Positions 7,959 through 33,517 of a stretch of 33,517 nt of DNA are shown here, one piece after another. The translations under genes were made by a program, and so were the position numbers. The DNA comes from Hydrurus foetidus (lineage: Eukaryota). Below the pieces are notes generated by a model, which was not told the DNA's origin, did not search any database, and worked only from the letters and a program-made list of their open reading frames with translations. The DNA lies in assembly GCA_900617105.1 (NCBI GenBank), contig UYFQ01000173.1, forward strand, positions 62,001 to 95,517, read 5' to 3'. Every line of letters begins with the position of its first letter. Position 1 is the stretch's first letter.

Positions 7959-8003
7959 CCTTGCAAGATTTTTGCAACTTTCTAGCTAATCTATCTAAGG
8001 ATG

Positions 8004-8294: not shown

Positions 8295-8485
8295 CCCAGT
8301 GGGCCCGCAGACTGCCGAGCCCAACCCCCACTGCTTGAAATTTTGGATGACGTTCTATCCCACAAAGCCCATAGCCACAGCTAAATCGAATCGCTCATCT
8401 CTCGTCTCATACTTGCTATGTGTGTATAGTGCATAGTGCATAGTGCAGTACAAAGTGATTACGTCTGTCACCAATTCATTTCGAC

Positions 8486-11400
8486 ATGGAGATACGTCTC
8501 TATATAATGATAAATATCCTTCTCGGACTTCTAGTACTCAGTACGAAACTGGAGAGTTGTCTATCTGGATGTTCGGATTCATCACCGAAGTGCACTGAGG
8601 CACAGCTAGCTCAGAATCATTCCTCAAGTCATACTCATGTTTTCAAGGCTGGGATGCCATTATTGGCATCACGCTCCGATCTAATCAAGAAAGGACGACC
8701 TGATGACGATTATATTCATGAAGTTGTGTTTGCAACCCAGTCGAGGAACATGGACAAATTAACCCGAATAGTTGACGACGTCTCAGATCCGCAAAGTGTC
8801 AACTACGGCCAGCACATGACGAGGGAGCATGTCATAGAGATGACATCTAGCCCAGAATCTTCTGCCGCAGTGAGCGCATATTTGCATTCAAATGGTGCAT
8901 CGGTGGTATCGGTAACTTTAGGCGAAGAGTACATCACAGCTCAGGCACCGATATCTGTGTGGGAGCGGCTCCTCAATACCAGATTCCACATCTTTCAGCA
9001 GACGCATCGCAATGGACATGTGACTGAGTCAGTCAGAGCCGAAGAGTACTGGATATCAAAGGAAATCGACTCGCATGTGCTTTGTGCGACAAATACTGTC
9101 GAAATGCCTGTCATTCAGCAATGGGGAAAGTCAGATGTTGTTGAAGCCGAGAGCACCAGAAACAGAAGGCTTCAAATACCTGGGCTGTTACACGAACAAC
9201 TGATTACTCCCGCAAGACTGAGAATTTATTACAATATTAGTAACAGTAAAGGTAGCAGTTTATCTACCCAGGTGGTCTTCGGGAACCCGGATAGTTATTT
9301 CAGTCAACTACGTCTACGCTGGTTTCAAGGGAATGTGTCAATGCAACCGTATCAAGCAGCTATCATACAGTTCCCAGATGATGGTCACACGAAAGATGAC
9401 GCAGGTGATACTTCTGAGGATAAATTCAGCGAGATCAACCTGGACATACAGTACATAATGGCGATGTCACCTGGGTCACCCACTACATACTGGCGTTACA
9501 ATGATCTGGGCATATCTAGATTTCTCAGAGATATGGCATCGTCACCAAAACCATCGCTAGTGGTAAGTATCAGCTACGCTCTCGTAGAAAGATATAACTC
9601 GCCAGCGGAGTGGTACATTTTTGATGAATGGGTACTGAAGGCGAGTGCGATGGGTATCACGGTATTCAGTGCAACCGGCGACAATGGTGCAGTCGACGGT
9701 GGCATCGATGGGGTATTGAGTCGGTGCAGTTATGCGCCATGTTATCCTAGCTCAAGCCCGTATGTCGTTGCAGTCGGAGGCACCACGGTAAGCACACTCA
9801 AACTTCAACACGTTAACACGATGGACATGTGCAGTATTATCATGGACTCACCAATGCTGTTCCTCTTGCATGCAGGGTGCGTTGGAGTACACCGAGGAAG
9901 TCGTGTGCGCGTGGAGTACAGGCCAAAAAATAACTGGTGGTGGAGGATTCTCAACTCAGTATCTTCGACCAGCGTATCAGGACGCGGCGGTAAAGAGATA
10001 CTTCACAGAAGTGGATCGTTCAACGAATAAGCCTGCACCTGGATACAATGCTGGGGGCAGAGGATTTCCAGACGTGTCTTTCGAAGCGAACATGTACAGA
10101 GTGCAGAAAATGAACGAGCTGGCAACACACTGGAGCGGAACGTCAGGTACCTCCGCGTCTTGTCCTGTCGCAGCAGGCATGTTCTCCAATATCAATGCTG
10201 CTCGCCTAGCTATAGGAAAGGGATCTCTCGGCTGGGTCAACCCTGTGCTGTACACATACTTTTCTCGCTTTGGGAACGATGTAGTGAAGGGAAACAACAA
10301 GGACGGTCCGACATGCCCTCAGGGCTTCTACGCTACACCAGGGTGGGACCCCGCATCAGGTCTCGGATCAATCAATTACGGGAAGTTTGAAGAAGTCATG
10401 CTTTCACTCGGAAACGTCAACTCTGCTTTAGCGGATCCGTTACCTCAGCCAACACAATATCCGACTAAACTTGCAAAAACTCCATTCAACAACGAAGGAT
10501 CGGAAGAATACAAAGAGCCCGATTATATAATTGCTATGCCGACCACCATACCTACAAATGCCCCGAGCATCAAGCCATCAAAAATTCCAACTATGATACC
10601 TACGTCAACGCCCACGCTATCGCCGACGTCACGACCCAGCAGCTGTCCCAGTATGGTGCCGTCAGACATGCCAACTATGATACCTGCGTCAACGCCTACG
10701 TCAACGCCCACGCTATCGCCGACGTCACGACCCAGCAGCTGTCCCAGTATGGTGCCGTCAGACATGCCAACTATGATACCTGCGTCAACGCCCACGCTAT
10801 CGCCGACGTCACGACCCAGCAGCTGTCCCAGTATGGTGCCGTCAGACATGCCAACTATGATACCTGCGTCAACGCCTACGTCAACGCCCACGCTATCGCC
10901 GACGTCACGACCCAGCAGCTGTCCCAGTATGGTGCCGTCAGACATGCCAACTATGATACCTGCGTCAACGCCTACGTCAACGCCCACGCTATCGCCGACG
11001 TCACGACCCAGCAGCTGTCCCAGTATGGTGCCGTCAGACATGCCAACTATGATACCTACGTCAACGCCCACGCTATCGCCGACGTCACGACCCAGCAGCT
11101 GTCCCAGTATGGTGCCGTCAGACATGCCAACTATGATACCTGCGTCAACGCCTACGTCAACGCCCACGCTATCGCCGACGTCACGACCCAGCAGCTGTCC
11201 CAGTATGGTGCCGTCAGACATGCCAACTATGATACCTGCGTCAACGCCTACGTCAACGCCCACGCTATCGCCGACGTCACGACCCAGCAGCTGTCCCAGT
11301 ATGGTGCCGTCAGACATGCCAACTATGATACCTGCGTCAACGCCTACGTCAACGCCCACGCTATCGCCGACGTCACGACCCAGCAGCTGTCCCAGTATGG

Positions 11401-14400
11401 TGCCGTCAGACATGCCAACTATGATACCTGCGTCAACGCCTACGTCAACGCCCACGCTATCGCCGACGTCACGACCCAGCAGCTGTCCCAGTATGGTGCC
11501 GTCAGACATGCCAACTATGATACCTGCGTCAACGCCTACGTCAACGCCCACGCTATCGCCGACGTCACGACCCAGCAGCTGTCCCAGTATGGTGCCGTCA
11601 GACATGCCAACTATGATACCTGCGTCAACGCCTACGTCAACGCCCACGCTATCGCCGACGTCACGACCCAGCAGCTGTCCCAGTATGGTGCCGTCAGACA
11701 TGCCAACTATGATACCTGCGTCAACGCCTACGTCAACGCCCACGCTATCGCCGACGTCACGACCCAGCAGCTGTCCCAGTATGGTGCCGTCAGACATGCC
11801 AACTATGATACCTGCGTCAACGCCTACGTCAACGCCCACGCTATCGCCGACGTCACGACCCAGCAGCTGTCCCAGTATGGTGCCGTCAGACATGCCAACT
11901 ATGATACCTGCGTCAACGCCTACGTCAACGCCCACGCTATCGCCGACGTCACGACCCAGCAGCTGTCCCAGTATGGTGCCGTCAGACATGCCAACTATGA
12001 TACCTGCGTCAACGCCTACGTCAACGCCCACGCTATCGCCGACGTCACGACCCAGCAGCTGTCCCAGTATGGTGCCGTCAGACATGCCAACTATGATACC
12101 TGCGTCAACGCCTACGTCAACGCCCACGCTATCGCCGACGTCACGACCCAGCAGCTGTCCCAGTATGGTGCCGTCAGACATGCCAACTATGATACCTGCG
12201 TCAACGCCTCGTCAACGCCCACGCTATCGCCGACGTCACGACCCAGCAGCTGTCCCAGTATGGTGCCGTCAGACATGCCAACTATGATACCTACGTCAAC
12301 GCCCACGCTATCGCCGACGTCACGACCCAGCAGCTGTCCCAGTATGGTGCCGTCAGACATGCCAACTATGATACCTACGTCAACGCCCACGCTATCGCCG
12401 ACGTCACGACCCAGCAGCTGTCCCAGTATGGTGCCGTCAGACATGCCAACTATGATACCTACGTCAACGCCCACGCTATCGCCGACGTCACGACCCAGCA
12501 GCTGTCCCAGTATGGTGCCGTCAGACATGCCAACTATGATACCTGCGTCAACGCCTACGTCAACGCCCACGCTATCGCCGACGTCACGACCCAGCAGCTG
12601 TCCCAGTATGGTGCCGTCAGACATGCCAACTATGATACCTACGTCAACGCCCACGCTATCGCCGACGTCACGACCCAGCAGCTGTCCCAGTATGGTGCCG
12701 TCAGACATGCCAACTATGATACCTGCGTCAACGCCCGTCAACGCCCACGCTATCGCCGACGTCACGACCCAGCAGCTGTCCCAGTATGGTGCCGTCAGAC
12801 ATGCCAACTATGATACCTGCGTCAACGCCTACGTCAACGCCCACGCTATCGCCGACGTCACGACCCAGCAGCTGTCCCAGTATGGTGCCGTCAGACATGC
12901 CAACTATGATACCTACGTCAACGCCCACGCTATCGCCGACGTCACGACCCAGCAGCTGTCCCAGTATGGTGCCGTCAGACATGCCAACTATGATACCTAC
13001 GTCAACGCCCACGCTATCGCCGACGTCACGACCCAGCAGCTGTCCCAGTATGGTGCCGTCAGACATGCCAACTATGATACCTGCGTCAACGCCTACGTCA
13101 ACGCCCACGCTATCGCCGACGTCACGACCCAGCAGCTGTCCCAGTATGGTGCCGTCAGACATGCCAACTATGATACCTGCGTCAACGCCTCGTCAACGCC
13201 CACGCTATCGCCGACGTCACGACCCAGCAGCTGTCCCAGTATGGTGCCGTCAGACATGCCAACTATGATACCTGCGTCAACGCCTACGTCAACGCCCACG
13301 CTATCGCCGACGTCACGACCCAGCAGCTGTCCCAGTATGGTGCCGTCAGACATGCCAACTATGATACCTGCGTCAACGCCTACGTCAACGCCCACGCTAT
13401 CGCCGACGTCACGACCCAGCAGCTGTCCCAGTATGGTGCCGTCAGACATGCCAACTATGATACCTGCGTCAACGCCTACGTCAACGCCCACGCTATCGCC
13501 GACGTCACGACCCAGCAGCTGTCCCAGTATGGTGCCGTCAGACATGCCAACTATGATACCTGCGTCAACGCCTACGTCAACGCCCACGCTATCGCCGACG
13601 TCACGACCCAGCAGCTGTCCCAGTATGGTGCCGTCAGACATGCCAACTATGATACCTGCGTCAACGCCTACGTCAACGCCCACGCTATCGCCGACGTCAC
13701 GACCCAGCAGCTGTCCCAGTATGGTGCCGTCAGACATGCCAACTATGATACCTGCGTCAACGCCTACGTCAACGCCCACGCTATCGCCGACGTCACGACC
13801 CAGCAGCTGTCCCAGTATGGTGCCGTCAGACATGCCAACTATGATACCTGCGTCAACGCCTCGTCAACGCCCACGCTATCGCCGACGTCACGACCCAGCA
13901 GCTGTCCCAGTATGGTGCCGTCAGACATGCCAACTATGATACCTGCGTCAACGCCCACGCTATCGCCCACGCTATCGCCGTCGTCACGACCCAGCAGCTG
14001 TCCCAGTATGGTGCCGTCAGACATGCCAACTATGATACCTGCGTCAACGCCTACGTCAACGCCCACGCTATCGCCGACGTCACGACCCAGCAGCTGTCCC
14101 AGTATGGTGCCGTCAGACATGCCAACTATGATACCTGCGTCAACGCCTACGTCAACGCCCACGCTATCGCCGACGTCACGACCCAGCAGCTGTCCCAGTA
14201 TGGTGCCGTCAGACATGCCAACTATGATACCTGCGTCAACGCCTACGTCAACGCCCACGCTATCGCCGACGTCACGACCCAGCAGCTGTCCCAGTATGGT
14301 GCCGTCAGACATGCCAACTATGATACCTGCGTCAACGCCCACGCTATCGCCGACGTCACGACCCAGCAGCTGTCCCAGTATGGTGCCGTCAGACATGCCA

Positions 14401-17400
14401 ACTATGATACCTGCGTCAACGCCCGTCAACGCCCACGCTATCGCCGACGTCACGACCCAGCAGCTGTCCCAGTATGGTGCCGTCAGACATGCCAACTATG
14501 ATACCTGCGTCAACGCCTCAACGCCCACGCTATCGCCGACGTCACGACCCAGCAGCTGTCCCAGTATGGTGCCGTCAGACATGCCAACTATGATACCTGC
14601 GTCAACGCCTCGTCAACGCCCACGCTATCGCCGACGTCACGACCCAGCAGCTGTCCCAGTATGGTGCCGTCAGACATGCCAACTATGATACCTGCGTCAA
14701 CGCCTACGTCAACGCCCACGCTATCGCCGACGTCACGACCCAGCAGCTGTCCCAGTATGGTGCCGTCAGACATGCCAACTATGATACCTGCGTCAACGCC
14801 TACGTCAACGCCCACGCTATCGCCGACGTCACGACCCAGCAGCTGTCCCAGTATGGTGCCGTCAGACATGCCAACTATGATACCTGCGTCAACGCCTCGT
14901 CAACGCCCACGCTATCGCCGACGTCACGACCCAGCAGCTGTCCCAGTATGGTGCCGTCAGACATGCCAACTATGATACCTGCGTCAACGCCTACGTCAAC
15001 GCCCACGCTATCGCCGACGTCACGACCCAGCAGCTGTCCCAGTATGGTGCCGTCAGACATGCCAACTATGATACCTGCGTCAACGCCTACGTCAACGCCC
15101 ACGCTATCGCCGACGTCACGACCCAGCAGCTGTCCCAGTATGGTGCCGTCAGACATGCCAACTATGATACCTGCGTCAACGCCCACGCTATCGCCGACGT
15201 CACGACCCAGCAGCTGTCCCAGTATGGTGCCGTCAGACATGCCAACTATGATACCTACGTCAACGCCCACGCTATCGCCGACGTCACGACCCAGCAGCTG
15301 TCCCAGTATGGTGCCGTCAGACATGCCAACTATGATACCTGCGTCAACGCCCACGCTATCGCCGACGTCACGACCCAGCAGCTGTCCCAGTATGGTGCCG
15401 TCAGACATGCCAACTATGATACCTGCGTCAACGCCCACGCTATCGCCGACGTCACGACCCAGCAGCTGTCCCAGTATGGTGCCGTCAGACATGCCAACTA
15501 TGATACCTACGTCAACGCCCACGCTATCGCCGACGTCACGACCCAGCAGCTGTCCCAGTATGGTGCCGTCAGACATGCCAACTATGATACCTACGTCAAC
15601 GCCCACGCTATCGCCGACGTCACGACCCAGCAGCTGTCCCAGTATGGTGCCGTCAGACATGCCAACTATGATACCTACGTCAACGCCCACGCTATCGCCG
15701 ACGTCACGACCCAGCAGCTGTCCCAGTATGGTGCCGTCAGACATGCCAACTATGATACCTACGTCAACGCCCACGCTATCGCCGACGTCACGACCCAGCA
15801 GCTGTCCCAGTATGGTGCCGTCAGACATGCCAACTATGATACCTACGTCAACGCCCACGCTATCGCCGACGTCACGACCCAGCAGCTGTCCCAGTATGGT
15901 GCCGTCAGACATGCCAACTATGATACCTGCGTCAACGCCTACAACGCCCACGCTATCGCCGACGTCACGACCCAGCAGCTGTCCCAGTATGGTGCCGTCA
16001 GACATGCCAACTATGATACCTGCGTCAACGCCCACGCTATCGCCGACGTCACGACCCAGCAGCTGTCCCAGTATGGTGCCGTCAGACATGCCAACTATGA
16101 TACCTACGTCAACGCCCACGCTATCGCCGACGTCACGACCCAGCAGCTGTCCCAGTATGGTGCCGTCAGACATGCCAACTATGATACCTACGTCAACGCC
16201 CACGCTATCGCCGACGTCACGACCCAGCAGCTGTCCCAGTATGGTGCCGTCAGACATGCCAACTATGATACCTGCGTCAACGCCTACGTCAACGCCCACG
16301 CTATCGCCGACGTCACGACCCAGCAGCTGTCCCAGTATGGTGCCGTCAGACATGCCAACTATGATACCTGCGTCAACGCCCACGCTATCGCCGACGTCAC
16401 GACCCAGCAGCTGTCCCAGTATGGTGCCGTCAGACATGCCAACTATGATACCTGCGTCAACGCCTACGCAACGCCCACGCTATCGCCGACGTCACGACCC
16501 AGCAGCTGTCCCAGTATGGTGCCGTCAGACATGCCAACTATGATACCTACGTCAACGCCCACGCTATCGCCGACGTCACGACCCAGCAGCTGTCCCAGTA
16601 TGGTGCCGTCAGACATGCCAACTATGATACCTGCGTCAACGCCTACGTCAACGCCCACGCTATCGCCGACGTCACGACCCAGCAGCTGTCCCAGTATGGT
16701 GCCGTCAGACATGCCAACTATGATACCTACGTCAACGCCCACGCTATCGCCGACGTCACGACCCAGCAGCTGTCCCAGTATGGTGCCGTCAGACATGCCA
16801 ACTATGATACCTACGTCAACGCCCACGCTATCGCCGACGTCACGACCCAGCAGCTGTCCCAGTATGGTGCCGTCAGACATGCCAACTATGATACCTACGT
16901 CAACGCCCACGCTATCGCCGACGTCACGACCCAGCAGCTGTCCCAGTATGGTGCCGTCAGACATGCCAACTATGATACCTGCGTCAACGCCCACGCTATC
17001 GCCGACGTCACGACCCAGCAGCTGTCCCAGTATGGTGCCGTCAGACATGCCAACTATGATACCTACGTCAACGCCCACGCTATCGCCGACGTCACGACCC
17101 AGCAGCTGTCCCAGTATGGTGCCGTCAGACATGCCAACTATGATACCTACGTCAACGCCCACGCTATCGCCGACGTCACGACCCAGCAGCTGTCCCAGTA
17201 TGGTGCCGTCAGACATGCCAACTATGATACCTACGTCAACGCCCACGCTATCGCCGACGTCACGACCCAGCAGCTGTCCCAGTATGGTGCCGTCAGACAT
17301 GCCAACTATGATACCTGCGTCAACGCCCACGCTATCGCCGACGTCACGACCCAGCAGCTGTCCCAGTATGGTGCCGTCAGACATGCCAACTATGATACCT

Positions 17401-20400
17401 ACGTCAACGCCCACGCTATCGCCGACGTCACGACCCAGCAGCTGTCCCAGTATGGTGCCGTCAGACATGCCAACTATGATACCTACGTCAACGCCCACGC
17501 TATCGCCGACGTCACGACCCAGCAGCTGTCCCAGTATGGTGCCGTCAGACATGCCAACTATGATACCTACGTCAACGCCCACGCTATCGCCGACGTCACG
17601 ACCCAGCAGCTGTCCCAGTATGGTGCCGTCAGACATGCCAACTATGATACCTACGTCAACGCCCACGCTATCGCCGACGTCACGACCCAGCAGCTGTCCC
17701 AGTATGGTGCCGTCAGACATGCCAACTATGATACCTACGTCAACGCCCACGCTATCGCCGACGTCACGACCCAGCAGCTGTCCCAGTATGGTGCCGTCAG
17801 ACATGCCAACTATGATACCTACGTCAACGCCCACGCTATCGCCGACGTCACGACCCAGCAGCTGTCCCAGTATGGTGCCGTCAGACATGCCAACTATGAT
17901 ACCTGCGTCAACGCCCACGTCAACGCCCACGCTATCGCCGACGTCACGACCCAGCAGCTGTCCCAGTATGGTGCCGTCAGACATGCCAACTATGATACCT
18001 GCGTCAACGCCCACGCTATCGCCGACGTCACGACCCAGCAGCTGTCCCAGTATGGTGCCGTCAGACATGCCAACTATGATACCTACGTCAACGCCCACGC
18101 TATCGCCGACGTCACGACCCAGCAGCTGTCCCAGTATGGTGCCGTCAGACATGCCAACTATGATACCTGCGTCAACGCCTACGCAACGCCCACGCTATCG
18201 CCGACGTCACGACCCAGCAGCTGTCCCAGTATGGTGCCGTCAGACATGCCAACTATGATACCTGCGTCAACGCCCACGCAACGCCCACGCTATCGCCGAC
18301 GTCACGACCCAGCAGCTGTCCCAGTATGGTGCCGTCAGACATGCCAACTATGATACCTGCGTCAACGCCCACGCTATCGCCGACGTCACGACCCAGCAGC
18401 TGTCCCAGTATGGTGCCGTCAGACATGCCAACTATGATACCTGCGTCAACGCCCACGCTATCGCCGACGTCACGACCCAGCAGCTGTCCCAGTATGGTGC
18501 CGTCAGACATGCCAACTATGATACCTGCGTCAACGCCCACGCTATCGCCGACGTCACGACCCAGCAGCTGTCCCAGTATGGTGCCGTCAGACATGCCAAC
18601 TATGATACCTACGTCAACGCCCACGCTATCGCCGACGTCACGACCCAGCAGCTGTCCCAGTATGGTGCCGTCAGACATGCCAACTATGATACCTACGTCA
18701 ACGCCCACGCTATCGCCGACGTCACGACCCAGCAGCTGTCCCAGTATGGTGCCGTCAGACATGCCAACTATGATACCTACGTCAACGCCCACGCTATCGC
18801 CGACGTCACGACCCAGCAGCTGTCCCAGTATGGTGCCGTCAGACATGCCAACTATGATACCTACGTCAACGCCCACGCTATCGCCGACGTCACGACCCAG
18901 CAGCTGTCCCAGTATGGTGCCGTCAGACATGCCAACTATGATACCTACGTCAACGCCTACACGCCCACGCTATCGCCGACGTCACGACCCAGCAGCTGTC
19001 CCAGTATGGTGCCGTCAGACATGCCAACTATGATACCTACGTCAACGCCCACGCTATCGCCGACGTCACGACCCAGCAGCTGTCCCAGTATGGTGCCGTC
19101 AGACATGCCAACTATGATACCTACGTCAACGCCCACGCTATCGCCGACGTCACGACCCAGCAGCTGTCCCAGTATGGTGCCGTCAGACATGCCAACTATG
19201 ATACCTACGTCAACGCCCACGCTATCGCCGACGTCACGACCCAGCAGCTGTCCCAGTATGGTGCCGTCAGACATGCCAACTATGATACCTACGTCAACGC
19301 CCACGCTATCGCCGACGTCACGACCCAGCAGCTGTCCCAGTATGGTGCCGTCAGACATGCCAACTATGATACCTACGTCAACGCCCACGCTATCGCCGAC
19401 GTCACGACCCAGCAGCTGTCCCAGTATGGTGCCGTCAGACATGCCAACTATGATACCTACGTCAACGCCCACGCTATCGCCGACGTCACGACCCAGCAGC
19501 TGTCCCAGTATGGTGCCGTCAGACATGCCAACTATGATACCTACGTCAACGCCCACGCTATCGCCCACGCTATCGCCGACGTCACGACCCAGCAGCTGTC
19601 CCAGTATGGTGCCGTCAGACATGCCAACTATGATACCTACGTCAACGCCCACGCTATCGCCGCTATCGCCGACGTCACGACCCAGCAGCTGTCCCAGTAT
19701 GGTGCCGTCAGACATGCCAACTATGATACCTACGTCAACGCCCACGCTATCGCCGACGTCACGACCCAGCAGCTGTCCCAGTATGGTGCCGTCAGACATG
19801 CCAACTATGATACCTACGTCAACGCCTACGCTACGCCCACGCTATCGCCGACGTCACGACCCAGCAGCTGTCCCAGTATGGTGCCGTCAGACATGCCAAC
19901 TATGATACCTACGTCAACGCCCACGCTATCGCCGACGTCACGACCCAGCAGCTGTCCCAGTATGGTGCCGTCAGACATGCCAACTATGATACCTGCGTCA
20001 ACGCCCACGCTATCGCCCACGCTATCGCCGACGTCACGACCCAGCAGCTGTCCCAGTATGGTGCCGTCAGACATGCCAACTATGATACCTACGTCAACGC
20101 CCACGCTATCGCCGACGTCACGACCCAGCAGCTGTCCCAGTATGGTGCCGTCAGACATGCCAACTATGATACCTACGTCAACGCCCACGCTATCGCCGAC
20201 GTCACGACCCAGCAGCTGTCCCAGTATGGTGCCGTCAGACATGCCAACTATGATACCTACGTCAACGCCCACGCTATCGCCCACGCTATCGCCGACGTCA
20301 CGACCCAGCAGCTGTCCCAGTATGGTGCCGTCAGACATGCCAACTATGATACCTACGTCAACGCCCACGCTATCGCCGACGTCACGACCCAGCAGCTGTC

Positions 20401-21737
20401 CCAGTATGGTGCCGTCAGACATGCCAACTGTGATACCTACGTCAACGCCCACGCTATCGCCGATGTCACGACCCAGCAGCTGTCCCAGTATGGTGCCGTC
20501 AGACATACCAACTATGATAAATACAAGTCATTTAAGCTGCTTTCCAACCGCTTTGTCTTCGAGCTTATCTGCATTACCAACATCATCATCGTCACCATCA
20601 GGTAAAATGACAACAAAAACTCTTTCAGATTCTATTCATCTCATTATCTTTATAACAATTGATATTTTTCCCGAATGATTTCGCCACTGTAGGTACCATC
20701 GTCCCATCAAATTTCATTCCTGGGAGAGTGACAACGATATCAGCTTTTCAGGTGAGTGAGTGAGTGAGTGAGTGGGTGAGTGGGCGAGTGGCAAGACTCT
20801 TTCGAGAATTGCATAGCTCTACTACAGATTTGTAATTTCTTGTTTTCTCTTCTTTTGTCCTCTCTTCTTTTCTTCCCTCACCTCCTCTTCTCTGCTTTCT
20901 TCTCTTCGTCATTTCTCTTATTGTATCACATCTTTTCTCCTCTTTTTCTCTTTATCCTACCTCCTCTTCTTTCTCTCATTTCATCTCCTATTCGTTTACC
21001 TCCCCTTCTTCCTTCTGCTTTGTGGCGACTCTACAGGTGCTGTCCGGAGTAACACAACCCGAAGCATCAACTGCATCATTCTCGACAGCAGTGATAGAAA
21101 GCGTGTCAGAGGTGCTTGGCTTGCCGCCTGGAAATGTCACAGGAGATGTGGTCATCGGCAACAGGCGATCTCTCCTTGCCACCGTGAGTATGCTCTACAC
21201 TGTCCGCATAGTCAGCGACATGTCTAGTTCCAGCATCATCAGTAAGCTGCAGCAGGCTATGTCAAGCGGCGCCTTTGTCGCTTTGTTGCGCAAGAAATCT
21301 GGCCTGCCTATCGACAGCGCCACATCTGTGTCGATCACTGACGCAACTCCCACGAGCGCACCTGTTTCATCTCTCGAGATCCCTACCAAAACACGAGGTA
21401 CGATTGCAGGCCACATTATCTGTAGCTGTATCTGTATCTTTATCTCTGAATCTAGGAAACTAAGTGCTGCATTTCAATGTCCACAGACTCGTCTAATCAA
21501 TCGAGCGTCAACATTGGATCAATCGCTGGCGGCACTATCGGGGCGTTTCTGCTCATCCTGATTTGCTTTAGTGCCTATTACTGCATGCACTGGAAACAGA
21601 ATAAATTCTCACCGGTTCAATCAAAACTGGGACTGTTGTACGAGGAAGACATCATCGACATGATTCCAGAGACCGTAGGCAGGAACCCAGGGTTGGTGGA
21701 TTCGCACGATGTCATGGTGACGTCGTATGAGATATAA
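8486..21737 (+). CDS. Giant type-I membrane sedolisin (peptidase S53, TPP1/kumamolisin-like) with mucin-like stalk, SEA-like domain and TM helix; exons 8486-9787, 9876-20601, 20693-20751, 21037-21397, 21487-21737 (~4230 aa if array frameshifts are artefacts)
   Basis: Hydrophobic N-terminus and pro-domain (VSDPQSVNYGQHMTRE). Catalytic motifs: SEINLDIQY (Glu/Asp), ATGDNG (oxyanion Asp), PSSSPYVVAVGGT, GGGFS, GRGFPDVS, GTSASCP (Ser), GWDPASGLGSIN (Ca site). All four introns are GT-AG and phase-compatible (9788-9875, 20602-20692, 20752-21036, 21398-21486). TM segment IAGGTIGAFLLILICFSAYYC. Confidence 0.88.
10587..20519 (+). repeat. Coding minisatellite of roughly 110-115 near-identical 84-bp and 96-bp units ([ASTP]TSTPTLSPTSRPSSCPSMVPSDMPTMIP)
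   Basis: Direct reading. Units differ mainly by an optional 12-bp segment and GCG/ACG; 96-bp units dominate the 5' part and 84-bp units the 3' part. Copy number is estimated from length. Confidence 0.97.
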
Positions 21738-24411
21738 ACACACCATGATTAAATTAAGTTTTAATTTCATGATGTTCAATACAGAAGAGACAAGGAAAAA
21801 CTTGGAAGTCGTACTTCACTATGATCCCTAGATACTAAAATGATAATAAGTAATACAAACCATAAATTGAATTCACGGCATGAGAAAGACATTGCTTTTC
21901 AGCACTCTCACTTTTACACGAGGTTTTAATTTTTGTCCATACATTTTTGCCCTTCATTATATTGCCCGTAATTTCCTCCCCAAAATTTTCTAGAACGTAC
22001 AGTAAATCCTGTAGAGCAGTGACTGAATTTCAGCCATTTTTGCGATACATCTCCTATCTTGTTTCATCTGTAAGTGACTCGTATATTAAACATTCAAGCA
22101 CACCACTCGCTATTGATGACGCTATTCTGTAAGTGATGAAATAAAATATGATCGATGTAAAATATGACGTGTACGCGTCTTCTATTCTCTGTGTATGATG
22201 GTTCCCTCTCGTTCCCCACCAAGTAATTGATTGAGCTCCCCCCTCTGCCTTACGCAGCTAACACAACAACTTTATAAATGTCTTGAACTCCCACTCAATA
22301 CAATGAAATACATTTTGTCGTGCGTGCTTAATTGAATTACCCCTGGCTTCCCCTCGTTACGAAATAGATTTTCATCATCGTGTGCAGTAATGTAAATATG
22401 ATTCCCAACTCTCCTGTTACGACACGACATTTTTTTCTTGGTGAGGAACTTCCCTAACTCGCTGCTTAATTTCGCAGAAAAAACTTGCCAACGAAATCGA
22501 CTCGACGAGCGAAAATTTTCATCACAACTGCCAAGGATTTGATTTAAGACATTCTGTCAACTCGCAGCGTACCTTTCTATTTACCTCTCGTGAGGCGATT
22601 CAGGGGACACGATCGTTTTGACATTTCACAAGAAAGATCGCGAAGTGAACAAACGGTTTTATTTAAATTAATTTCCGTCTGTATAAAATCTGTAATTCGC
22701 AAGTACAAGTGTTTAATGGCATAGACAACTAGAGCATTATAGGGTTTATAAATCGAGTGTAACAGGGGACACGCGATCAATCGTTGGGAGCCAACATGTG
22801 GGCAAGGCACCCACTTGCTGGGAATCAGAAATGACTAAAATCATTTCTACCCTCAAAAAAGTAGGACGTCACAATGAGGTGCATTGGAAATAACGAAAAT
22901 TATAAAGATAAATTTCTAGTGAAGATCTATGACTGTGAACTATCTAGGGTAAAATCACGGCAAAGTAGACATCACGTTAAACATCGAACATAGAAGAGTA
23001 ATCATATTAAAAAAATGTAAATTTGCCCTAATTGAAGACAATTCATACGATAGCAACCGTGTAAGTGTAAGTGTTCTATCTCGGAGTATGAGAGTCAGTT
23101 CTACTTATTCTATCTAAATGTCTAGGATTTATTGAGTAGTAAAAGTGAGGAGAGAGAAAGAAAAGAAGGGAGAAGAAGAGATAGTATGTCGCAGGAAAGG
23201 ATCGAGAAGGAAGAAAAAAGGGGAGGAATTGTTTAGGTTGGTGAGAGACCTGCAAAGCAGTAAGGTCTTCTTGTTTACAAAAAACAAGAGGGGCTCTTGG
23301 ATTAAATCATGATCTGTCCGTTATTCATCACAGTAACGAGATCTGGAATGAGATCAGCTTCGTTAGTATGATCGTGTCTGGACTGCACTGGAGAGAACTT
23401 ACTCTGTTTCCAGTGAACACAGTACAAGGCAATAATGCATATAAAGACGACAAGCAATGCCCCGATAGTGCCGCCAGCGATTGATCCAATGTTGACGCTC
23501 GATTGATTAGACGAATCTGTCGACATTGAAATGCAGCACTTAGTTTCCTAGATTCAGAGATAAAGATACAGATACAGCTACAGCTACAGATAATGTGGCC
23601 TGTGATCGTACCTCGTGTTTTGGTAGGGATCTCGAGAGATGAAACAGGTGCGCTCGTGGGAGTTGCGTCAGTGATCGACACAGATGTGGCGCTGTCGATA
23701 GGCAGGCCAGATTTCTTGCGCAGCAAAGCGACAAAGGCGCCGCTTGACATAGCCTGCTGCAGCTTACTGATGATGCTGGAACTAGACATGTCGCTGACTA
23801 TGCGGACAGTGTAGAGCATACTCACGGTGGCAAGGAGAGATCGCCTGTTGCCGATGACCACATCTCCTGTGACATTTCCAGGCGGCAAGCCAAGCACCTC
23901 TGACACGCTTTCTATCACTGCTGTCGAGAATGATGCAGTTGATGCTTCGGGTTGCGTTACTCCGGACAGCACCTGTAGAGTCGCCACAAAGCAGAAGGAA
24001 GAAGGGGAGGTAAACGAATAGGAGATGAAATGAGAGAAAGAAGAGGAGGTAGGATAAAGAGAAAAAGAGGAGAAAAGATGTGATACAATAAGAGAAATGA
24101 CGAAGAGAAGAAAGCAGAGAAGAGGAGGTGAGGGAAGAAAAGAAGAGAGGACAAAAGAAGAGAAAACAAGAAATTACAAATCTGTAGTAGAGCTATGCAA
24201 TTCTCGAAAGAGTCTTGCCACTCGCCCACTCACCCACTCACCTGAAAAGCTGATATCGTTGTCACTCTCCCAGGAATGAAATTTGATGGGACGATGGTAC
24301 CTACAGTAGCGAAATCATTAAGGGACTATGATATAAGGACAACGAGATAGACAAAATCAAATCTGATGGTGTTTTTGTTGTCATTTTACCTGATGGTGAC
24401 GATGATGGTAC
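20580..24411. repeat. Large inverted duplication: arms ~20580-21620 and ~23385-24411, unique spacer ~1.75 kb, with homology continuing into the shared repeat units
   Basis: ORFs 21022+/23987-, 20780+/24229- and 21477+/23526- are mirror translations. Confidence 0.93.
20752..20789 (+). repeat. (GAGT)n microsatellite at the intron-3 donor
   Basis: GTGAGTGAGTGAGTGAGTGAGTGGGTGAGTGGGCGAGT; 16 nt longer than the equivalent in the paralog (24241-24220). Confidence 0.85.
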
Positions 24412-27400
24412 ACGGGTTGGACAGCTGCTGGGTTCAGAAGTAGGTATCACAGTTGGCATCTGTGACGGCACCATACTGGGGCAGCTGCTGGGTCGTGACG
24501 TCGGCGATAGCGTGGGCGTTGACGTAGGTATCATAGTTGGCATGTCTGACGGCACCATACTGGGACAGCTGCTGGGTCGTGACGTCGGCGATAGCGTGGG
24601 CGATAGCGTGGGCGTTGAGGTAGGTATCATAGTTGGCATGTCTGACGGCACCATACTGGGACAGCTGCTGGGTCGTGACGTCGGCGATAGCGTGGGCGTT
24701 GACGTAGGTATCATAGTTGGCATGTCTGACGGCACCATACTGGGACAGCTGCTGGGTCGTGACGTCGGCGATAGCGTGGGCGTTGACGTAGGTATCATAG
24801 TTGGCATGTCTGACGGCACCATACTGGGACAGCTGCTGGGTCGTGACGTCGGCGATAGCGTGGGCGATAGCGTGGGCGTTGACGTAGGTATCATAGTTGG
24901 CATGTCTGACGGCACCATACTGGGACAGCTGCTGGGTCGTGACGTCGGCGATAGCGTGGGCGTTGACGTAGGTATCATAGTTGGCATGTCTGACGGCGCC
25001 ATACTGGGACAGCTGCTGGGTCGTGACGTCGACGATAGCGTGGGCGTCGACGTAGGTATCATGGTAGGCATCTGTGACGGCGCCATACTAGGTTCACACG
25101 TAGGTATCATGGTAGGCATCTGTGACGGCGCCATACTAGGTTCACACGTAGGTATCATGGTAGGCATCTGTGACGGCGCCATACTAGGTTCACACGTAGG
25201 TATCATGGTAGGCATCTGTGACGGCGCCATACTAGGTTCACACGTAGGTATCATGGTAGGCATCTGTGACGGCGCCATACTAGGTTCACACGTAGGTATC
25301 ATGGTAGGCATCTGTGACGGCGCCATACTAGGTTCACACGTAGGTATCATGGTAGGCATCTGTGACGGCGCCATACTAGGTTCACACGTAGGTATCATGG
25401 TAGGCATCTGTGACGGCGCCATACTAGGTTCACACGTAGGTATCATGGTAGGCATCTGTGACGGCGCCATACTAGGTTCACACGTAGGTATCATGGTAGG
25501 CATCTGTGACGGCGCCATACTAGGTTCACACGTAGGTATCATGGTAGGCATCTGTGACGGCGCCATACTAGGTTCACACGTAGGTATCATGGTAGGCATC
25601 TGTGACGGCGCCATACTAGGTTCACACGTAGGTATCATGGTAGGCATCTGTGACGGCGCCATACTAGGTTCACACGTAGGTATCATGGTAGGCATCTGTG
25701 ACGGCGCCATACTAGGTTCACACGTAGGTATCATGGTAGGCATCTGTGACGGCGCCATACTAGGTTCACACGTAGGTATCATGGTAGGCATCTGTGACGG
25801 CGCCATACTAGGTTCACACGTAGGTATCATGGTAGGCATCTGTGACGGCGCCATACTAGGTTCACACGTAGGTATCATGGTAGGCATCTGTGACGGCGCC
25901 ATACTAGGTTCACACGTAGGTATCATGGTAGGCATCTGTGACGGCGCCATACTAGGTTCACACGTAGGTATCATGGTAGGCATCTGTGACGGCGCCATAC
26001 TAGGTTCACACGTAGGTATCATGGTAGGCATCTGTGACGGCGCCATACTAGGTTCACACGTAGGTATCATGGTAGGCATCTGTGACGGCGCCATACTAGG
26101 TTCACACGTAGGTATCATGGTAGGCATCTGTGACGGCGCCATACTAGGTTCACACGTAGGTATCATGGTAGGCATCTGTGACGGCGCCATACTAGGTTCA
26201 CACGTAGGTATCATGGTAGGCATCTGTGACGGCGCCATACTAGGTTCACACGTAGGTATCATGGTAGGCATCTGTGACGGCGCCATACTAGGTTCACACG
26301 TAGGTATCATGGTAGGCATCTGTGACGGCGCCATACTAGGTTCACACGTAGGTATCATGGTAGGCATCTGTGACGGCGCCATACTAGGTTCACACGTAGG
26401 TATCATGGTAGGCATCTGTGACGGCGCCATACTGGGACTGCTGACTGGTCGTGACGAAGGTGTCGCCATCGGTGGTACCGACGGTGTCGCTGACGGCGCC
26501 ATACTGGGACTGCTGACTGGTCGTGACGAAGGTATCGCCATCGGTGGTACCGACGGTGTCGCTGACGGCGCCATACTGGGACTGCTGACTGGTCGTGACG
26601 AAGGTGTCGCCATCGGTGGTACCGACGGTGTCGCTGACGGCGCCATACTGGGACTGCTGACTGGTCGTGACGAAGGCGTCGCCATCGGTGGTACCGACGG
26701 TGTCGCTGACGGCGCCATACTGGGACTGCTGACTGGTCGTGACGAAGGTATCGCCATCGGTGGTACCGACGGTGTCGCTGACGGCGCCATACTGGGACTG
26801 CTGACTGGTCGTGACGAAGGTATCGCCATCGGTGGTACCGACGGTGTCGCTGACGGCGCCATACTGGGACTGCTGACTGGTCGTGACGAAGGTATCGCCA
26901 TCGGTGGTACCGACGGTGTCGCTGACGGCGCCATACTGGGACAGCTGCTGGGTCGTGACGTCGGCGATAGCGTGGGCGTTGACGTAGGCGTTGACGCAGG
27001 TATCATAGTTGGCATGTCTGACGGCACCATACTGGGACAGCTGCTGGGTCGTGACGTCGGCGATAGCGTGGGCGTTGACGCAGGCGTTGACGCAGGTATC
27101 ATAGTTGGCATGTCTGACGGCACCATACTGGGACAGCTGCTGGGTCGTGACGTCGGCGATAGCGTGGGCGTTGACGCAGGCGTTGACGCAGGTATCATAG
27201 TTGGCATGTCTGACGGCACCATACTGGGACAGCTGCTGGGTCGTGACGTCGGCGATAGCGTGGGCGTTGACGCAGGCGTTGACGCAGGTATCATAGTTGG
27301 CATGTCTGACGGCACCATACTGGGACAGCTGCTGGGTCGTGACGTCGGCGATAGCGTGGGCGTTGACGCAGGCGTTGACGCAGGTATCATAGTTGGCATG

Positions 27401-30400
27401 TCTGACGGCACCATACTGGGACAGCTGCTGGGTCGTGACGTCGGCGATAGCGTGGGCGTTGACGTAGGCGTTGACGCAGGTATCATAGTTGGCATGTCTG
27501 ACGGCACCATACTGGGACAGCTGCTGGGTCGTGACGTCGGCGATAGCGTGGGCGTTGACGTAGGTATCATAGTTGGCATGTCTGACGGCACCATACTGGG
27601 ACAGCTGCTGGGTCGTGACGTCGGCGATAGCGTGGGCGTTGACGTAGGCGTTGACGCAGGTATCATAGTTGGCATGTCTGACGGCACCATACTGGGACAG
27701 CTGCTGGGTCGTGACGTCGGCGATAGCGTGGGCGTTGACGTAGGCGTTGACGCAGGTATCATAGTTGGCATGTCTGACGGCACCATACTGGGACAGCTGC
27801 TGGGTCGTGACGTCGGCGATAGCGTGGGCGTTGACGTAGGCGTTGACGCAGGTATCATAGTTGGCATGTCTGACGGCACCATACTGGGACAGCTGCTGGG
27901 TCGTGACGTCGGCGATAGCGTGGGCGTCGACGTAGGTATCATGGTAGGCATCTGTGCCGGCGCCATACTAGGTTCACACGTAGGTATCATGGTAGGCATC
28001 TGTGATGGCGCCATACTAGGTTCACACGTAGGTATCATGGTAGGCATCTGTGACGGCGCCATACTAGGTTCACACGTAGGTATCATGGTAGGCATCTGTG
28101 ACGGCGCCATACTAGGTTCACACGTAGGTATCATGGTAGGCATCTGTGACGGCGCCATACTAGGTTCACACGTAGGTATCATGGTAGGCATCTGTGACGG
28201 CGCCATACTAGGTTCACACGTAGGTATCATGGTAGGCATCTGTGACGGCGCCATACTAGGTTCACACGTAGGTATCATGGTAGGCATCTGTGACGGCGCC
28301 ATACTAGGTTCACACGTAGGTATCATGGTAGGCATCTGTGACGGCGCCATACTAGGTTCACACGTAGGTATCATGGTAGGCATCTGTGACGGCGCCATAC
28401 TAGGTTCACACGTAGGTATCATGGTAGGCATCTGTGACGGCGCCATACCAGGTTCACACGTAGGTATCATGGTAGGCATCTGTGACGGCGCCATACTAGG
28501 TTCACACGTAGGTATCATGGTAGGCATCTGTGACGGCGCCATACTAGGTTCACACGTAGGTATCATGGTAGGCATCTGTGACGGCGCCATACTAGGTTCA
28601 CACGTAGGTATCATGGTAGGCATCTGTGACGGCGCCATACTAGGTTCACACGTAGGTATCATGGTAGGCATCTGTGACGGCGCCATACTAGGTTCACACG
28701 TAGGTATCATGGTAGGCATCTGTGACGGCGCCATACCAGGTTCACACGTAGGTATCATGGTAGGCATCTGTGACGGCGCCATACTAGGTTCACACGTAGG
28801 TATCATGGTAGGCATCTGTGACGGCGCCATACTAGGTTCACACGTAGGTATCATGGTAGGCATCTGTGACGGCGCCATACTAGGTTCACACGTAGGTATC
28901 ATGGTAGGCATCTGTGACGGCGCCATACTAGGTTCACACGTAGGTATCATGGTAGGCATCTGTGACGGCGCCATACCAGGTTCACACGTAGGTATCATGG
29001 TAGGCATCTGTGACGGCGCCATACTAGGTTCACACGTAGGTATCATGGTAGGCATCTGTGACGGCGCCATACTAGGTTCACACGTAGGTATCATGGTAGG
29101 CATCTGTGACGGCGCCATACCAGGTTCACACGTAGGTATCATGGTAGGCATCTGTGACGGCGCCATACTAGGTTCACACGTAGGTATCATGGTAGGCATC
29201 TGTGACGGCGCCATACTAGGTTCACACGTAGGTATCATGGTAGGCATCTGTGACGGCGCCATACTAGGTTCACACGTAGGTATCATGGTAGGCATCTGTG
29301 ACGGCGCCATACTAGGTTCACACGTAGGTATCATGGTAGGCATCTGTGACGGCGCCATACTAGGTTCACACGTAGGTATCATGGTAGGCATCTGTGACGG
29401 CGCCATACTAGGTTCACACGTAGGTATCATGGTAGGCATCTGTGACGGCGCCATACTAGGTTCACACGTAGGTATCATGGTAGGCATCTGTGACGGCGCC
29501 ATACTAGGTTCACACGTAGGTATCATGGTAGGCATCTGTGACGGCGCCATACTAGGTTCACACGTAGGTATCATGGTAGGCATCTGTGACGGCGCCATAC
29601 TAGGTTCACACGTAGGTATCATGGTAGGCATCTGTGACGGCGCCATACTAGGTTCACACGTAGGTATCATGGTAGGCATCTGTGACGGCGCCATACTAGG
29701 TTCACACGTAGGTATCATGGTAGGCATCTGTGACGGCGCCATACTAGGTTCACACGTAGGTATCATGGTAGGCATCTGTGACGGCGCCATACTAGGTTCA
29801 CACGTAGGTATCATGGTAGGCATCTCTGACGGCGCCATACTAGGTTCACACGTAGGTATCATGGTAGGCATCTGTGACGGCGCCATACTAGGTTCACACG
29901 TAGGTATCATGGTAGGCATCTGTGACGGCGCCATACTAGGTTCACACGTAGGTATCATGGTAGGCATCTGTGACGGCGCCATACTAGGTTCACACGTAGG
30001 TATCATGGTAGGCATCTGTGACGGCGCCATACTAGGTTCACACGTAGGTATCATGGTAGGCATCTGTGACGGCGCCATACTAGGTTCACACGTAGGTATC
30101 ATGGTAGGCATCTGTGACGGCGCCATACTAGGTTCACACGTAGGTATCATGGTAGGCATCTGTGACGGCGCCATACTAGGTTCACACGTAGGTATCATGG
30201 TAGGCATCTGTGACGGCGCCATACTAGGTTCACACGTAGGTATCATGGTAGGCATCTGTGACGGCGCCATACTAGGTTCACACGTAGGTATCATGGTAGG
30301 CATCTGTGACGGCGCCATACTAGGTTCACACGTAGGTATCATGGTAGGCATCTGTGACGGCGCCATACTAGGTTCACACGTAGGTATCATGGTAGGCATC

Positions 30401-33400
30401 TGTGACGGCGCCATACTAGGTTCACACGTAGGTATCATGGTAGGCATCTGTGACGGCGCCATACTAGGTTCACACGTAGGTATCATGGTAGGCATCTGTG
30501 ACGGCGCCATACTAGGTTCACACGTAGGTATCATGGTAGGCATCTGTGACGGCGCCATACTAGGTTCACACGTAGGTATCATGGTAGGCATCTGTGACGG
30601 CGCCATACTAGGTTCACACGTAGGTATCATGGTAGGCATCTGTGACGGCGCCATACTAGGTTCACACGTAGGTATCATGGTAGGCATCTGTGACGGCGCC
30701 ATACTAGGTTCACACGTAGGTATCATGGTAGGCATCTGTGACGGCGCCATACTAGGTTCACACGTAGGTATCATGGTAGGCATCTGTGACGGCGCCATAC
30801 TAGGTTCACACGTAGGTATCATGGTAGGCATCTGTGACGGCGCCATACTAGGTTCACACGTAGGTATCATGGTAGGCATCTGTGACGGCGCCATACTAGG
30901 TTCACACGTAGGTATCATGGTAGGCATCTGTGACGGCGCCATACTAGGTTCACACGTAGGTATCATGGTAGGCATGTGTGACGGCGCCATACTAGGTTCA
31001 CACGTAGGTATCATGGTAGGCATCTGTGACGGCGCCATACTAGGTTCACACGTAGGTATCATGGTAGGCATCTGTGACGGCGCCATACTAGGTTCACACG
31101 TAGGTATCATGGTAGGCATCTGTGACGGCGCCATACTAGGTTCACACGTAGGTATCATGGTTGGCATGTCTGACGGCGCCATACTAGGTTCACACGTAGG
31201 TATCATGGTAGGCATCTGTGACGGCGCCATACTAGGTTCACACGTAGGTATCATGGTAGGCATCTCTGACGGCGCCATACTAGGTTCACACGTAGGTATC
31301 ATGGTAGGCATCTGTGACGGCGCCATACTAGGTTCACACGCAGGTATCATGGTAGGCATGTCTGACGGCGCCATACTAGGTTCACACGTAGGTATCATGG
31401 TAGGCATCTGTGACGGCGCCATACTAGGTTCACACGTAGGTATCATGGTAGGCATCTGTGACGGCGCCATACTAGGTTCACACGTAGGTATCATGGTAGG
31501 CATCTGTGACGGCGCCATACTAGGTTCACACGTAGGTATCATGGTAGGCATCTGTGACGGCGCCATACCAGGTTCACACGTAGGTATCATGGTAGGCATC
31601 TCTGACGGCGCCATACTAGGGACACGTAGGTATCATGGTAGGCATCTGTGACGGCGCCATACAGGGTTGACGTAGGTATCATGGTTGGCATGTCTGACGG
31701 CGCCATACTGGGACAGCTGCTGGGTCGTGGTCGGCATCTCTGACGGCGCCATACTAGGTTCACACGCAGGTATCATGGTTGGCATCGTGACGGCGCCATA
31801 CCTGGTTGACACGCTAGGTATCATGGTCGGCATCTGTGACGGCGCCATACTGGTTCACACGCAGGTATCATGGTTGGCATCTCTGACGGCGCCATACTGG
31901 TTCACACGTAGGTATCATGGTAGGCATCTGTGACGGCGCCATACCAGGTTGACGCAGGTATCATGGTTGGCATGTCTGACGGCGCCATACCAGGTTCACA
32001 CGTTGGTATCGTGACGTACGTGCGAAGCCTAGTATGGCGCCATACTAGGTTGACGTAGGTATCATAGTTGGCATGTGTGACGGCGCCATACTGGGACACT
32101 GCTGGGTCATGGTCGGCATCTGTGACGGCGCCATACTAGGTTCACACGTAGGTATCATAGTAGGCATGTGTGACGGCGCCATACCAGGTTCACACGTAGG
32201 TATCATCGTAGGCATCGTGACGGCGCCATACTAGCGTTGACACGCAGGTATCATAGTTGGCATGTCTGACGGCACCATACTGGGACACGCTGGGTCATGG
32301 TCGGCATCTGTGACGGCGCCATACCAGGTTGACGCAGGTATCATGGTTGGCATGTCTGACGGCGCCATACTAGGTTCACACGCTAGGTATCATGGTCGGC
32401 ATCTGTGACGGCGCCATACCAGGTTGACGCAGGTATCATAGTTGGCATGTCTGACGGCGCCATACTGGGACACGTGGGTCGTGACGTCGGCGATCTGTGA
32501 CGGCGCCATACCAGGTTGACGTAGGTATCATAGTTGGCATGTCTGACGGCGCCATACTGGGACACGTAGGTATCATGGTCGGCATCGTGACGGCGCCATA
32601 CTAGGTTCACACGTAGGTATCAGGGTAGGCATCTGTGACGGCGCCATACCAGGTTCACACGTAGGTATCATGGTAGGCATCTGTGACGGCGCCATACTGG
32701 TTCACACGTAGGTATCATAGTAGGCATCTGTGACGGCGCCATACCAGGTTCACGTAGGTATCATGGTTGGCATCTGTGACGGCGCCATACCAGGTTCACA
32801 CGTAGGTATCATGGTAGGCATCTGTGACGGCGCCATACCAGGTTCACACGTAGGTATCATGGTAGGCATGTCTGACGGCGCCATACTAGGTTCACTGTAG
32901 GTATCATGGTAGGCATCTGTGACGGCGCCATACTAGGTTCACACGTAGGTATCATGGTTGGCATGTCTGACGGCGCCATACTAGGTTCACACGCAGGTAT
33001 CATGGTCGGCATGTGTGACGGCGCCATACCAGGTTCACACGTAGGTATCATGGTAGGCATCTGTGACGGCGCCATACTAGGTTCACATGCTAGGCATCAT
33101 GGTAGGCATGCTGTGACGGCGCCATACCAGCGTTCACACGTAGGTATCATGGTTGGCATGTCTGACGGCGCCATACTAGGTTCACACGTAGGTATCATGG
33201 TAGGCATCTGTGACGGCGCCATACTAGGTTCACACGTAGGTATCATAGTTGGCATGTGTGACGGCGCCATACTAGGTTCACACGTAGGTATCATGGTAGG
33301 CATCTGTGACGGCGCCATACTAGGTTCACACGTAGGTATCATGGTTGGCATGTGTGACGGCGCCATACTAGGTTCACACGTAGGTATCATGGTTGGCATC

Positions 33401-33517
33401 TGTGACGGCGCCATACCAGGTTCACACGTAGGTATCAGGGTAGGCATGTGTGACGGCGCCATACTGGTTGACACGTAGGTATCATGGTAGGCATCTGTGA
33501 CGGCGCCATACCAGGTT
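23302..33517 (-). CDS. Convergent paralog, 3' part: mucin-like repeat stalk, SEA-like domain, TM and tail; exons >33517-24390, 24300-24242, 23972-23612, 23516-23302; N-terminus outside the window
   Basis: Same exon sizes (59 and 361 nt) and splice sites as the + gene; 2437-aa uninterrupted repeat ORF (31614-24301); TM segment IAGGTIGALLVVFICIIALYC. Confidence 0.85.
24440..33517 (-). repeat. Mosaic coding minisatellite: 84/96-bp block (~24460-25055), 48-bp TCEPSMAPSQMPTMIP block (~25056-26430, ~29 copies), 72-bp SRPVSSPSMAPSATPSVPPMA[IT]PS block (~26431-26934, 7 copies), 96/84-bp block (~26935-27935), 48-bp block (~27936 to end, degraded after ~31620)
   Basis: Direct reading of the DNA and of the 2437-aa translation. 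Confidence 0.95.

Follow-up and report, generated by a model that had tools for sequence, protein, structure and literature searches.

The stretch analysed here (the window) comprises 33,517 nucleotides (nt) of contig UYFQ01000173.1 from the Hydrurus foetidus assembly GCA_900617105.1. It contains, on its + strand, a gene encoding an S53 (sedolisin) protease head, a long tandem array rich in proline, threonine and serine (Pro/Thr/Ser) and a membrane-proximal cassette with a predicted transmembrane helix. The gene model is based on a sequence reading of the window (open reading frames, ORFs, and splice sites) complemented by homology. It extends from an ATG at 8486 to a stop codon ending at 21737 and consists of five exons and four introns, all of the latter with GT-AG borders. 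An inverted paralog, termed gene B, follows within the window. The architecture of the protease gene is a feature far beyond chance, and the gene is real and expressed, at a low level. Its catalytic residues and domains, the splicing of the array end to the membrane exons, sense transcription of the array and the presence of the same modules in relatives carry the interpretation developed below.

Protease head and membrane-proximal domains

The encoded protein begins with a hydrophobic N-terminus (19-residue hydropathy of 1.83 at residue 1), predicted to be a signal peptide, and continues with a pro-kumamolisin domain (PF09286) at residues 67-200, which Pfam detects with E 1.1e-24 and 87.7 bits against a cut-off of 23.5. 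Human TPP1 is matched by both exon halves of the catalytic region (exon 1, E 5.5e-20; start of exon 2, E 1.8e-22). In the alignment the catalytic triad is complete, with E316, D320 and S527 corresponding to TPP1 E272, D276 and S475, and the oxyanion aspartate is D399 in an ATGDNG motif (TPP1 D360); S363 is also among the S53 motifs present. The segments DVVKGNN and GWDPASGLGS align with the calcium-site region of TPP1 and presumably contain the calcium ligands. The roles of the triad and oxyanion residues follow the available passages of a TPP1 study (PMC2635056). The signal peptide, pro-domain and full S53 motif set named in a first-pass annotation, made from the sequence alone, are thus all present. 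By every sequence feature tested, the head is a member of S53, and it is predicted to be an acid-active protease. It is not of the TPP1 type at the position of Asp327, which in passages of the same study is proposed to bind the substrate N-terminus and so to give tripeptidyl specificity (PMC2635056). This position is occupied by Leu366, next to Ala365 in place of TPP1 Gly326, and the acid residue is missing in most relatives too. A TPP1-type exopeptidase was rejected as the default activity because Asp327 is replaced, which makes an endopeptidase more likely. Two RXL-type motifs were also found, RNRRLQ at the pro-domain junction and NRRSLL in the juxtamembrane domain; in diatom wall proteins, which also carry PT repeats, proteases are described as cutting at RXL (PMC5501833).

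On the other side of the array, exons 4 and 5 matched no Pfam family, including SEA. Exon 4 has two close database relatives, and an AlphaFold model based on a two-row alignment, built without the first strand (exon 3), reached a predicted local distance difference test (pLDDT) score of 63. A structural search with this model ranked CELSR1 1227-1319 highest (Z 7.7, root-mean-square deviation 2.7, 86 aligned), followed by RbfA (Z 6.3) and PCDH15 (5.9), with other SEA-type domains at Z 4.2-5.9. The matched ranges of CELSR1, PCDH15, IA-2, TMPRSS6 and MUC16 are regarded as SEA-type. Foldseek, run with the model lacking its first strand, gave nothing at E 0.001 or better, and an Atlas search with exon 4 yielded eukaryotic clusters without a name, plus a SEA cluster that scored weakly (0.78). 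With moderate confidence, the juxtamembrane domain is called SEA-like. The NRRSLL motif sits in a low-confidence loop between two model strands and represents a candidate cleavage loop. Hydropathy in exon 5 rises to 1.99, and inspection of the tail by eye found no clear tyrosine or dileucine sorting signal. The juxtamembrane domain, transmembrane helix and tail of about 50 residues noted in the first-pass annotation were recovered in exons 4 and 5, as a predicted helix and a tail of 49 residues.

The tandem array, its reading frame and its transcripts

Between these two parts lies an array in which 111 anchor motifs over 10635-20472 delimit 110 units. Most are 84 or 96 nt long (28 or 32 residues), and 17 different forms occur. 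The unit types follow an ordered gradient, and the array matches the PT repeat PF04886 (Pfam, E 3.9e-37). The 28-residue unit contains 7 Pro, 5 Thr, 7 Ser, 3 Met and 1 Cys, so that 19 of its 28 residues (~68%) are Pro, Thr or Ser. Judged as a long Pro/Thr/Ser tandem array, the predicted stalk is mucin-like in composition only. At 0.25-0.38 nm per residue, its contour would measure 0.8-1.25 micrometres, only if glycosylated and extended. The ~110 stalk cysteines, one per unit, could instead cross-link, loop or fold it.

The array of about 10 kilobases (kb) and the stalk of ~3300 residues proposed in the first-pass annotation are borne out as far as the 110 units are concerned; that annotation did not mention 13 frameshifting deletions in the assembled array (21 nt in total), which leave units of 92, 94 or 95 nt. 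In the assembly, a stop at 12285 ends the frame after 1,237 residues, and the values of ~3,300 residues for the stalk and ~4,240 residues for the protein follow from treating these deletions as assembly errors. All 13, together with two in-frame 93-nt units, are partial deletions within the ~24-nt block that separates 84-nt from 96-nt units, and the first 51 nt of the unit are free of indels in 110 of 110 units. Such clustering is the pattern expected if polishing cannot choose between two unit types. In addition, the listed RNA repeat junctions all sum to 84 or 96 nt, with 22 + 29 reads in one case (51) and 32 + 59 in the other (91); listing required at least three reads, and the reference stretches comprised a single unit and did not fully cover the frameshift block. 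Because all the deletions fall in a single variable block and the listed junctions are in frame, the frameshifts are most likely assembly errors. For comparison, gene B contains a 7.3-kb array that is unbroken over 2,443 open codons and then shows 14 breaks near the window end.

Read data were taken from a DNA run (X1), a freshwater metatranscriptome (X9) and two oligo-dT RNA runs (X21, X22). Part of the head region is present in 20 runs, from biofilm, sediment, freshwater and air samples and one coded organism; the head index shares of X9 (0.30), X12 (0.28) and X17 (0.21) were not counted as head expression, and the smaller ones of X18-X20 were ignored. In X21 and X22, sense-strand RNA covers the array unit at a depth of 36-67 and the 3' exons at ~1-6.5 (exon 5, 1.5-6.5). 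In X9, a 491-nt contig (record 10, depth 9.4) leads from the last unit into exons 3 and 4, spliced in frame, with 58 nt between its two aligned parts at exon 3. The X9 unit contig has a depth of 816, which is 87-fold that of record 10 and 61-fold when a second junction contig is added; DNA carry-over in this run is unlikely because depth is zero on 22460-23440. Past the stop codon, X9 contigs run on to ~22400 (21738-22404), perhaps as a long 3' untranslated region.

At the DNA level, summed unit depth in X1 gives a floor of ~75-80 unit copies per single-copy locus; all copy-number estimates rest on depth in this run only, where contig depth is not itself copy number. A contig at 10448-10616 joins the end of the catalytic domain to the array start at two-copy depth. 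Compared with a single-copy depth of ~175, the anchor cassette lies at 343, most of the head at ~270-360 and two head pieces at 166-194, which suggests two near-identical heads and two anchor cassettes. The tethered design put forward at first pass is therefore supported by RNA in which the array end is spliced to membrane exons, by DNA in which the head runs into the array, and by relatives that carry the modules in one frame. The proposed linkage of protease and transmembrane exons within transcripts was obtained for the array end, and no transcript linking head to tail was found.

Sequence differences among reads favour a working gene, since those in the head (X1) and in exons 4-5 (X9) are silent: three of three full-depth head differences and six of six checked in exons 4-5, three of them listed in exon 5. 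In the two difference tables, 77 and 3 further rows lie beyond those counted. Most head reads in X21 and X22 matched only in part, at 90-95%, and stem from paralogs; they were not credited to this gene. Other S53 paralogs are far more strongly expressed, as partial reads reach depths of 40-55 on 9436-9532 and 10286-10397 in these runs.

Table 1. Features of the protease gene and of its inverted paralog, in window coordinates.
Feature	Coordinates	Strand	Content and evidence
Exon 1	8486..9787	+	434 codons; predicted signal peptide, pro-kumamolisin domain, N-terminal catalytic half
Sites in exon 1	9158; 9431, 9443; 9680	+	RNRRLQ junction; catalytic E316/D320; oxyanion D399
Intron 1	9788..9875	+	88 nt, GT-AG; from sequence and homology
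Exon 2, first part	9876..10535	+	C-terminal catalytic half; nucleophile S527 at 10152; GWDP calcium motif at 10341
Exon 2, stalk	10536..20601	+	110 units of 84/96 nt and short flanks; ~3,360 residues if read through
Intron 2	20602..20692	+	91 nt; spliced in 6 X21 reads, 2 X22 reads and one X9 contig
Exon 3	20693..20751	+	59 nt; likely strand 1 of the SEA-like domain, judged from relatives
Intron 3	20752..21036	+	285 nt; near-identical in gene B; skipped in X9 record 10
Exon 4	21037..21397	+	SEA-like juxtamembrane domain (moderate confidence), NRRSLL loop
Intron 4	21398..21486	+	89 nt; spliced in 3 X21 reads, 5 X22 reads and one X9 contig
Exon 5	21487..21737	+	predicted membrane helix at ~21513-21584; 49-residue predicted cytoplasmic tail
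Gene B (inverted paralog)	23302..33517	-	head beyond window end

Gene B carries at least three Pro/Thr/Ser arrays of kb scale, a mosaic of 48-nt, 72-nt and A-type (84/96 nt) units, 19 of the anchors being A-type. Its stalk is Met-rich and has one Cys per 48-nt (16-residue) unit. The array end, exons 3-4 and intron 3 are shared with the protease gene at 93% identity over 1,050 nt, and the helix and tail have diverged. A second S53 head in gene B is likely, because X1 depth fits two heads and two cassettes, and the two copies probably exchange sequence. Beyond 31600, many frameshifts occur in gene B, as at a poorly covered contig end.

Upstream of the protease gene, a Copia-like long terminal repeat (LTR) retrotransposon occupies 2250-8295, with - strand ORFs at 7985-6774 and 6822-3043 that match a zinc knuckle and RVT_2 (Pfam). 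Its LTRs of ~280 nt (2250-2529 and 8015-8295) are 99.6% identical, and the element ends ~190 nt before the protease ATG; the gag and pol frames differ and overlap by 49 nt, as a result of an assembly error or of programmed frameshifting. Two further - strand ORFs (2-565 and 609-1199) have no Pfam match; they may be pieces of a DNA transposase, which they resemble.

Relatives and comparable proteins

Relatives of the head were collected from a representative search with exon 1 (best 150 of 3,494 relatives at E 0.001 or better) and a search with exon 2 (best 120 of 552). The set comprised 275 proteins, and seven were dropped (three cluster duplicates, two anchor-only and two apparently prokaryotic proteins). 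A catalytic domain was scored as complete by its C-terminal calcium motif, as in 134 proteins among the matches listed, to which the following counts apply. Extensions of more than 50 residues past the motif occur in 53 of the 134; at least 30 Pro/Thr/Ser-rich residues are present in 28 and at least 100 in 14. A C-terminal hydrophobic helix was called in 34, and 11 combine helix and stalk. At least three of the helix calls, those in P0166, P0168 and P0170, were judged by eye to represent translated introns. In the catalytic half, P0160-P0170 are the nearest relatives (39-46% identity); most of them run into PT stalks, and the point matching the place of intron 1 is where the open frames of many relatives end. 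Head, stalk and helix occur in single open frames in relatives. Inspection by eye found a head, a PT stretch, a SEA-like region and a helix in each of P0087, P0096, P0107, P0216 and P0177 (the last from Ochromonas danica). A two-row juxtamembrane profile found only P0005, P0006 and P0168 among the 275 proteins, and P0168 carries the same juxtamembrane domain after its head. Named relatives further include Epipyxis (P0068, P0091) and Aphanomyces (P0190, P0193), and an archaeal S53 with a C-terminal helix is represented by P0003.

The longest Pro/Thr/Ser stretch of a relative totals 254 residues, a value that is a floor for the family because two of the searches covered proteins up to ~2,000-2,170 residues and arrays interrupt assemblies made from short reads. 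An exon 1 search for longer proteins gave only four matches, which is weak evidence, and a scan of JGI metagenome contigs found only four distant loci (35-42% identity). On these sequences, the membrane anchor is a predicted family trait and the stalk length an outlier. As side observations, P0016 and P0169 have ~1,980 residues and a C-terminal helix call, P0016 with four matched stretches in tandem S53 modules; a Cys-rich module separates the S53 head from the anchor in P0068, P0087, P0091, P0096, P0102, P0125 and P0156, and P0091 adds long beta-repeat regions.

Among characterised enzymes, TPP1 (PDB 3edy, 3ee6) and kumamolisin share with the head the pro-domain, triad, oxyanion Asp, the Ser324 equivalent and the calcium motif. 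Unlike the protein described here, TPP1 has ~560 residues without a stalk or membrane anchor, and has Asp327/Gly326 where Leu366/Ala365 are found here. The nearest likeness is seen in membrane-anchored S53 proteins, as yet uncharacterised, from chrysophytes and other stramenopiles (P0068, P0091, P0177, P0190, P0193, P0055, P0087, P0096, P0107, P0216), which carry a PT stretch, a SEA-like region or both after the head. Most of them end in a C-terminal helix with a short tail, with no helix call in P0091. Their Pro/Thr/Ser residues are mostly degenerate in arrangement, in contrast to ~3,300 residues of near-identical Cys-bearing units, a comparison of stalk length limited by the under-representation of long arrays in databases. 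In modular proteases of Aphanomyces euteiches, a PF04886 PT linker connects the protease domain to another module; these enzymes belong to the secreted C1A cysteine proteases, their added module is CBM1 or CAP, and the passages available describe no anchor or giant stalk (PMC10084794). In Toxoplasma, the subtilisin-clan protease TgSUB1 is tethered at the protist surface and trims other proteins, according to passages of PMC10470614. It differs in its S8 family membership and its glycosylphosphatidylinositol anchor. TgSUB1 presumably also has a proline-rich stalk. Membrane mucins and other SEA proteins (MUC1/MUC16, CELSR1, PCDH15, TMPRSS6) likewise place a long Pro/Thr/Ser array above a SEA-like domain and one helix; no sequence homology to them was found, and the likeness is one of composition. 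Mucins are not known to carry a protease head.

A literature search, mostly at the level of abstracts and with subscription papers and supplements outside its scope, found no description of a membrane-anchored S53 protease with a PT stalk; term look-ups in PMC6278154 and bioRxiv 10.64898/2026.10.27.762293 gave no relevant passage. The first-pass view that the architecture is not recognisable from characterised proteins holds in this respect. It does not extend to uniqueness, since anchored S53 proteins, some with Pro/Thr stalks and some lacking them, are common among the closest relatives and only the stalk length is exceptional. The search of protist proteins for the same combination, which that annotation had proposed, recovered the modules in several chrysophyte-type proteins, so the gene is not singular.

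Interpretation and alternatives

The gene probably encodes one type I membrane zymogen of ~4,240 residues, in which a Pro/Thr/Ser spacer of ~3,300 residues would keep the S53 head at a distance from the membrane, and the head would digest protein in an acidic compartment. The protein would enter the secretory route, and its pro-domain would be removed either by acidification, as in TPP1, or by cleavage at the RRL site. The head may then cut as an endopeptidase under acidic conditions, for which the lumen of a digestive vacuole or an acidified cell-coat pocket is the most likely setting, and release peptides as food. The stalk would act as a spacer, lengthened or shortened by unequal exchange among its tandem units and with gene B, and cleavage of the RSL loop in the SEA-like domain could release the entire ectodomain. 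In Ochromonas, lysosomal proteases respond to prey and light; the passages available name no S53, and Table S3 of that paper, which covers lysosomal proteases, may include S53 genes (PMC5310065). This response fits a digestive role. A bolder version, which we hold only tentatively and consider doubtful, is an undescribed chrysophyte-type family of membrane-tethered acid proteases with a reach set by a variable array. In this lineage it would form a cross-linked proteolytic brush of up to ~1 micrometre on the surface or vacuole wall, re-tuned by exchange with the inverted copy and shed at the SEA-like domain.

Several observations weigh against the tethered zymogen. No read or contig spans the array, and the join of head and tail follows from the assembly alone. 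Splicing of intron 1 was not seen in the oligo-dT runs X21 and X22, where head depth outside paralog reads is 0-2 and falls to 0 at 10468-10551; a 3' bias, if present, would explain the sparse head RNA. Other genes could contribute to the unit depth. The in-frame RNA junctions test the assembly errors weakly, because the frameshift block is incompletely covered and a different strain may be the source of the RNA. In the linker at 20532-20557, three of four X9 differences alter the encoded residue. For a modelled domain, the SEA assignment is of middling strength (Z 7.7 against 6.3 for RbfA, with no Foldseek match), and the window domain profile did not recognise P0087, P0096, P0107, P0216 and P0177. 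Enzyme activity, pH optimum, glycosylation and location are all predicted.

These points bear differently on the alternatives. The protein may be as described and the stalk mainly matrix, with its ~110 cysteines cross-linked into a coat or mucilage and the protease released or embedded there. A Cys in every unit of the protease gene and also in the 16-residue unit of gene B, RXL motifs that flank the ectodomain and resemble the cleavage site of PT-bearing diatom wall proteins (PMC5501833), and a stalk that seems longer than a vacuole spacer would need all agree with such a role. We consider it unlikely, as relatives keep the modules with short and mostly Cys-poor PT stretches, which fits an expanded spacer, and as cross-linking and cleavage are themselves predictions from sequence. 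The absence of a spanning read and the sparse head RNA, which is zero at the head-array junction, speak for a reading in which head and tail do not form one transcript, through an assembler misjoin via shared repeats (the A-type unit occurs 19 times in gene B), a much shorter array, or a head transcript that ends inside the array. The ordered gradient of unit types and the relatives with the design in single open frames argue against this, as do RNA and DNA depths, which both point to many tens of units. With about two heads, two cassettes and a head-array contig at two-copy depth, either pairing would give the same design. We regard a separation of head and tail as quite improbable.

The frameshifts might also be real, in which case the gene would encode a secreted 1,237-residue protease with a repeat tail of ~560 residues or would be a copy in decay next to a recently inserted retrotransposon. 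The assembled sequence reads in this way, expression is low, and the nearly identical LTRs belong to an element that stops just short of the start codon. Against this stand the confinement of 13 of 13 deletions to the one block where unit types differ, the lack of any out-of-frame junction among those listed in any run, and downstream exons that are spliced and show silent changes; we regard real frameshifts as very improbable. A single tethered zymogen thus remains the preferred reading.

The characterised S53 enzymes that were checked, TPP1 and kumamolisin, are compact and anchorless, whereas the present gene, taken with its relatives, suggests that a membrane-anchored branch, not found described in the literature search, is widespread among chrysophytes and other stramenopiles. 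Most assemblies contain genes of this kind in interrupted or truncated form. The function of stramenopile PT repeats is called little known in the available passages of a diatom paper (PMC5501833), and the array provides a test case for it. If the full length is true, the protein would be a stalk of mucin scale with an enzyme at its tip. The gene offers a concrete candidate for the way in which protein is digested at membranes by these algae, which eat bacteria or live in biofilms.

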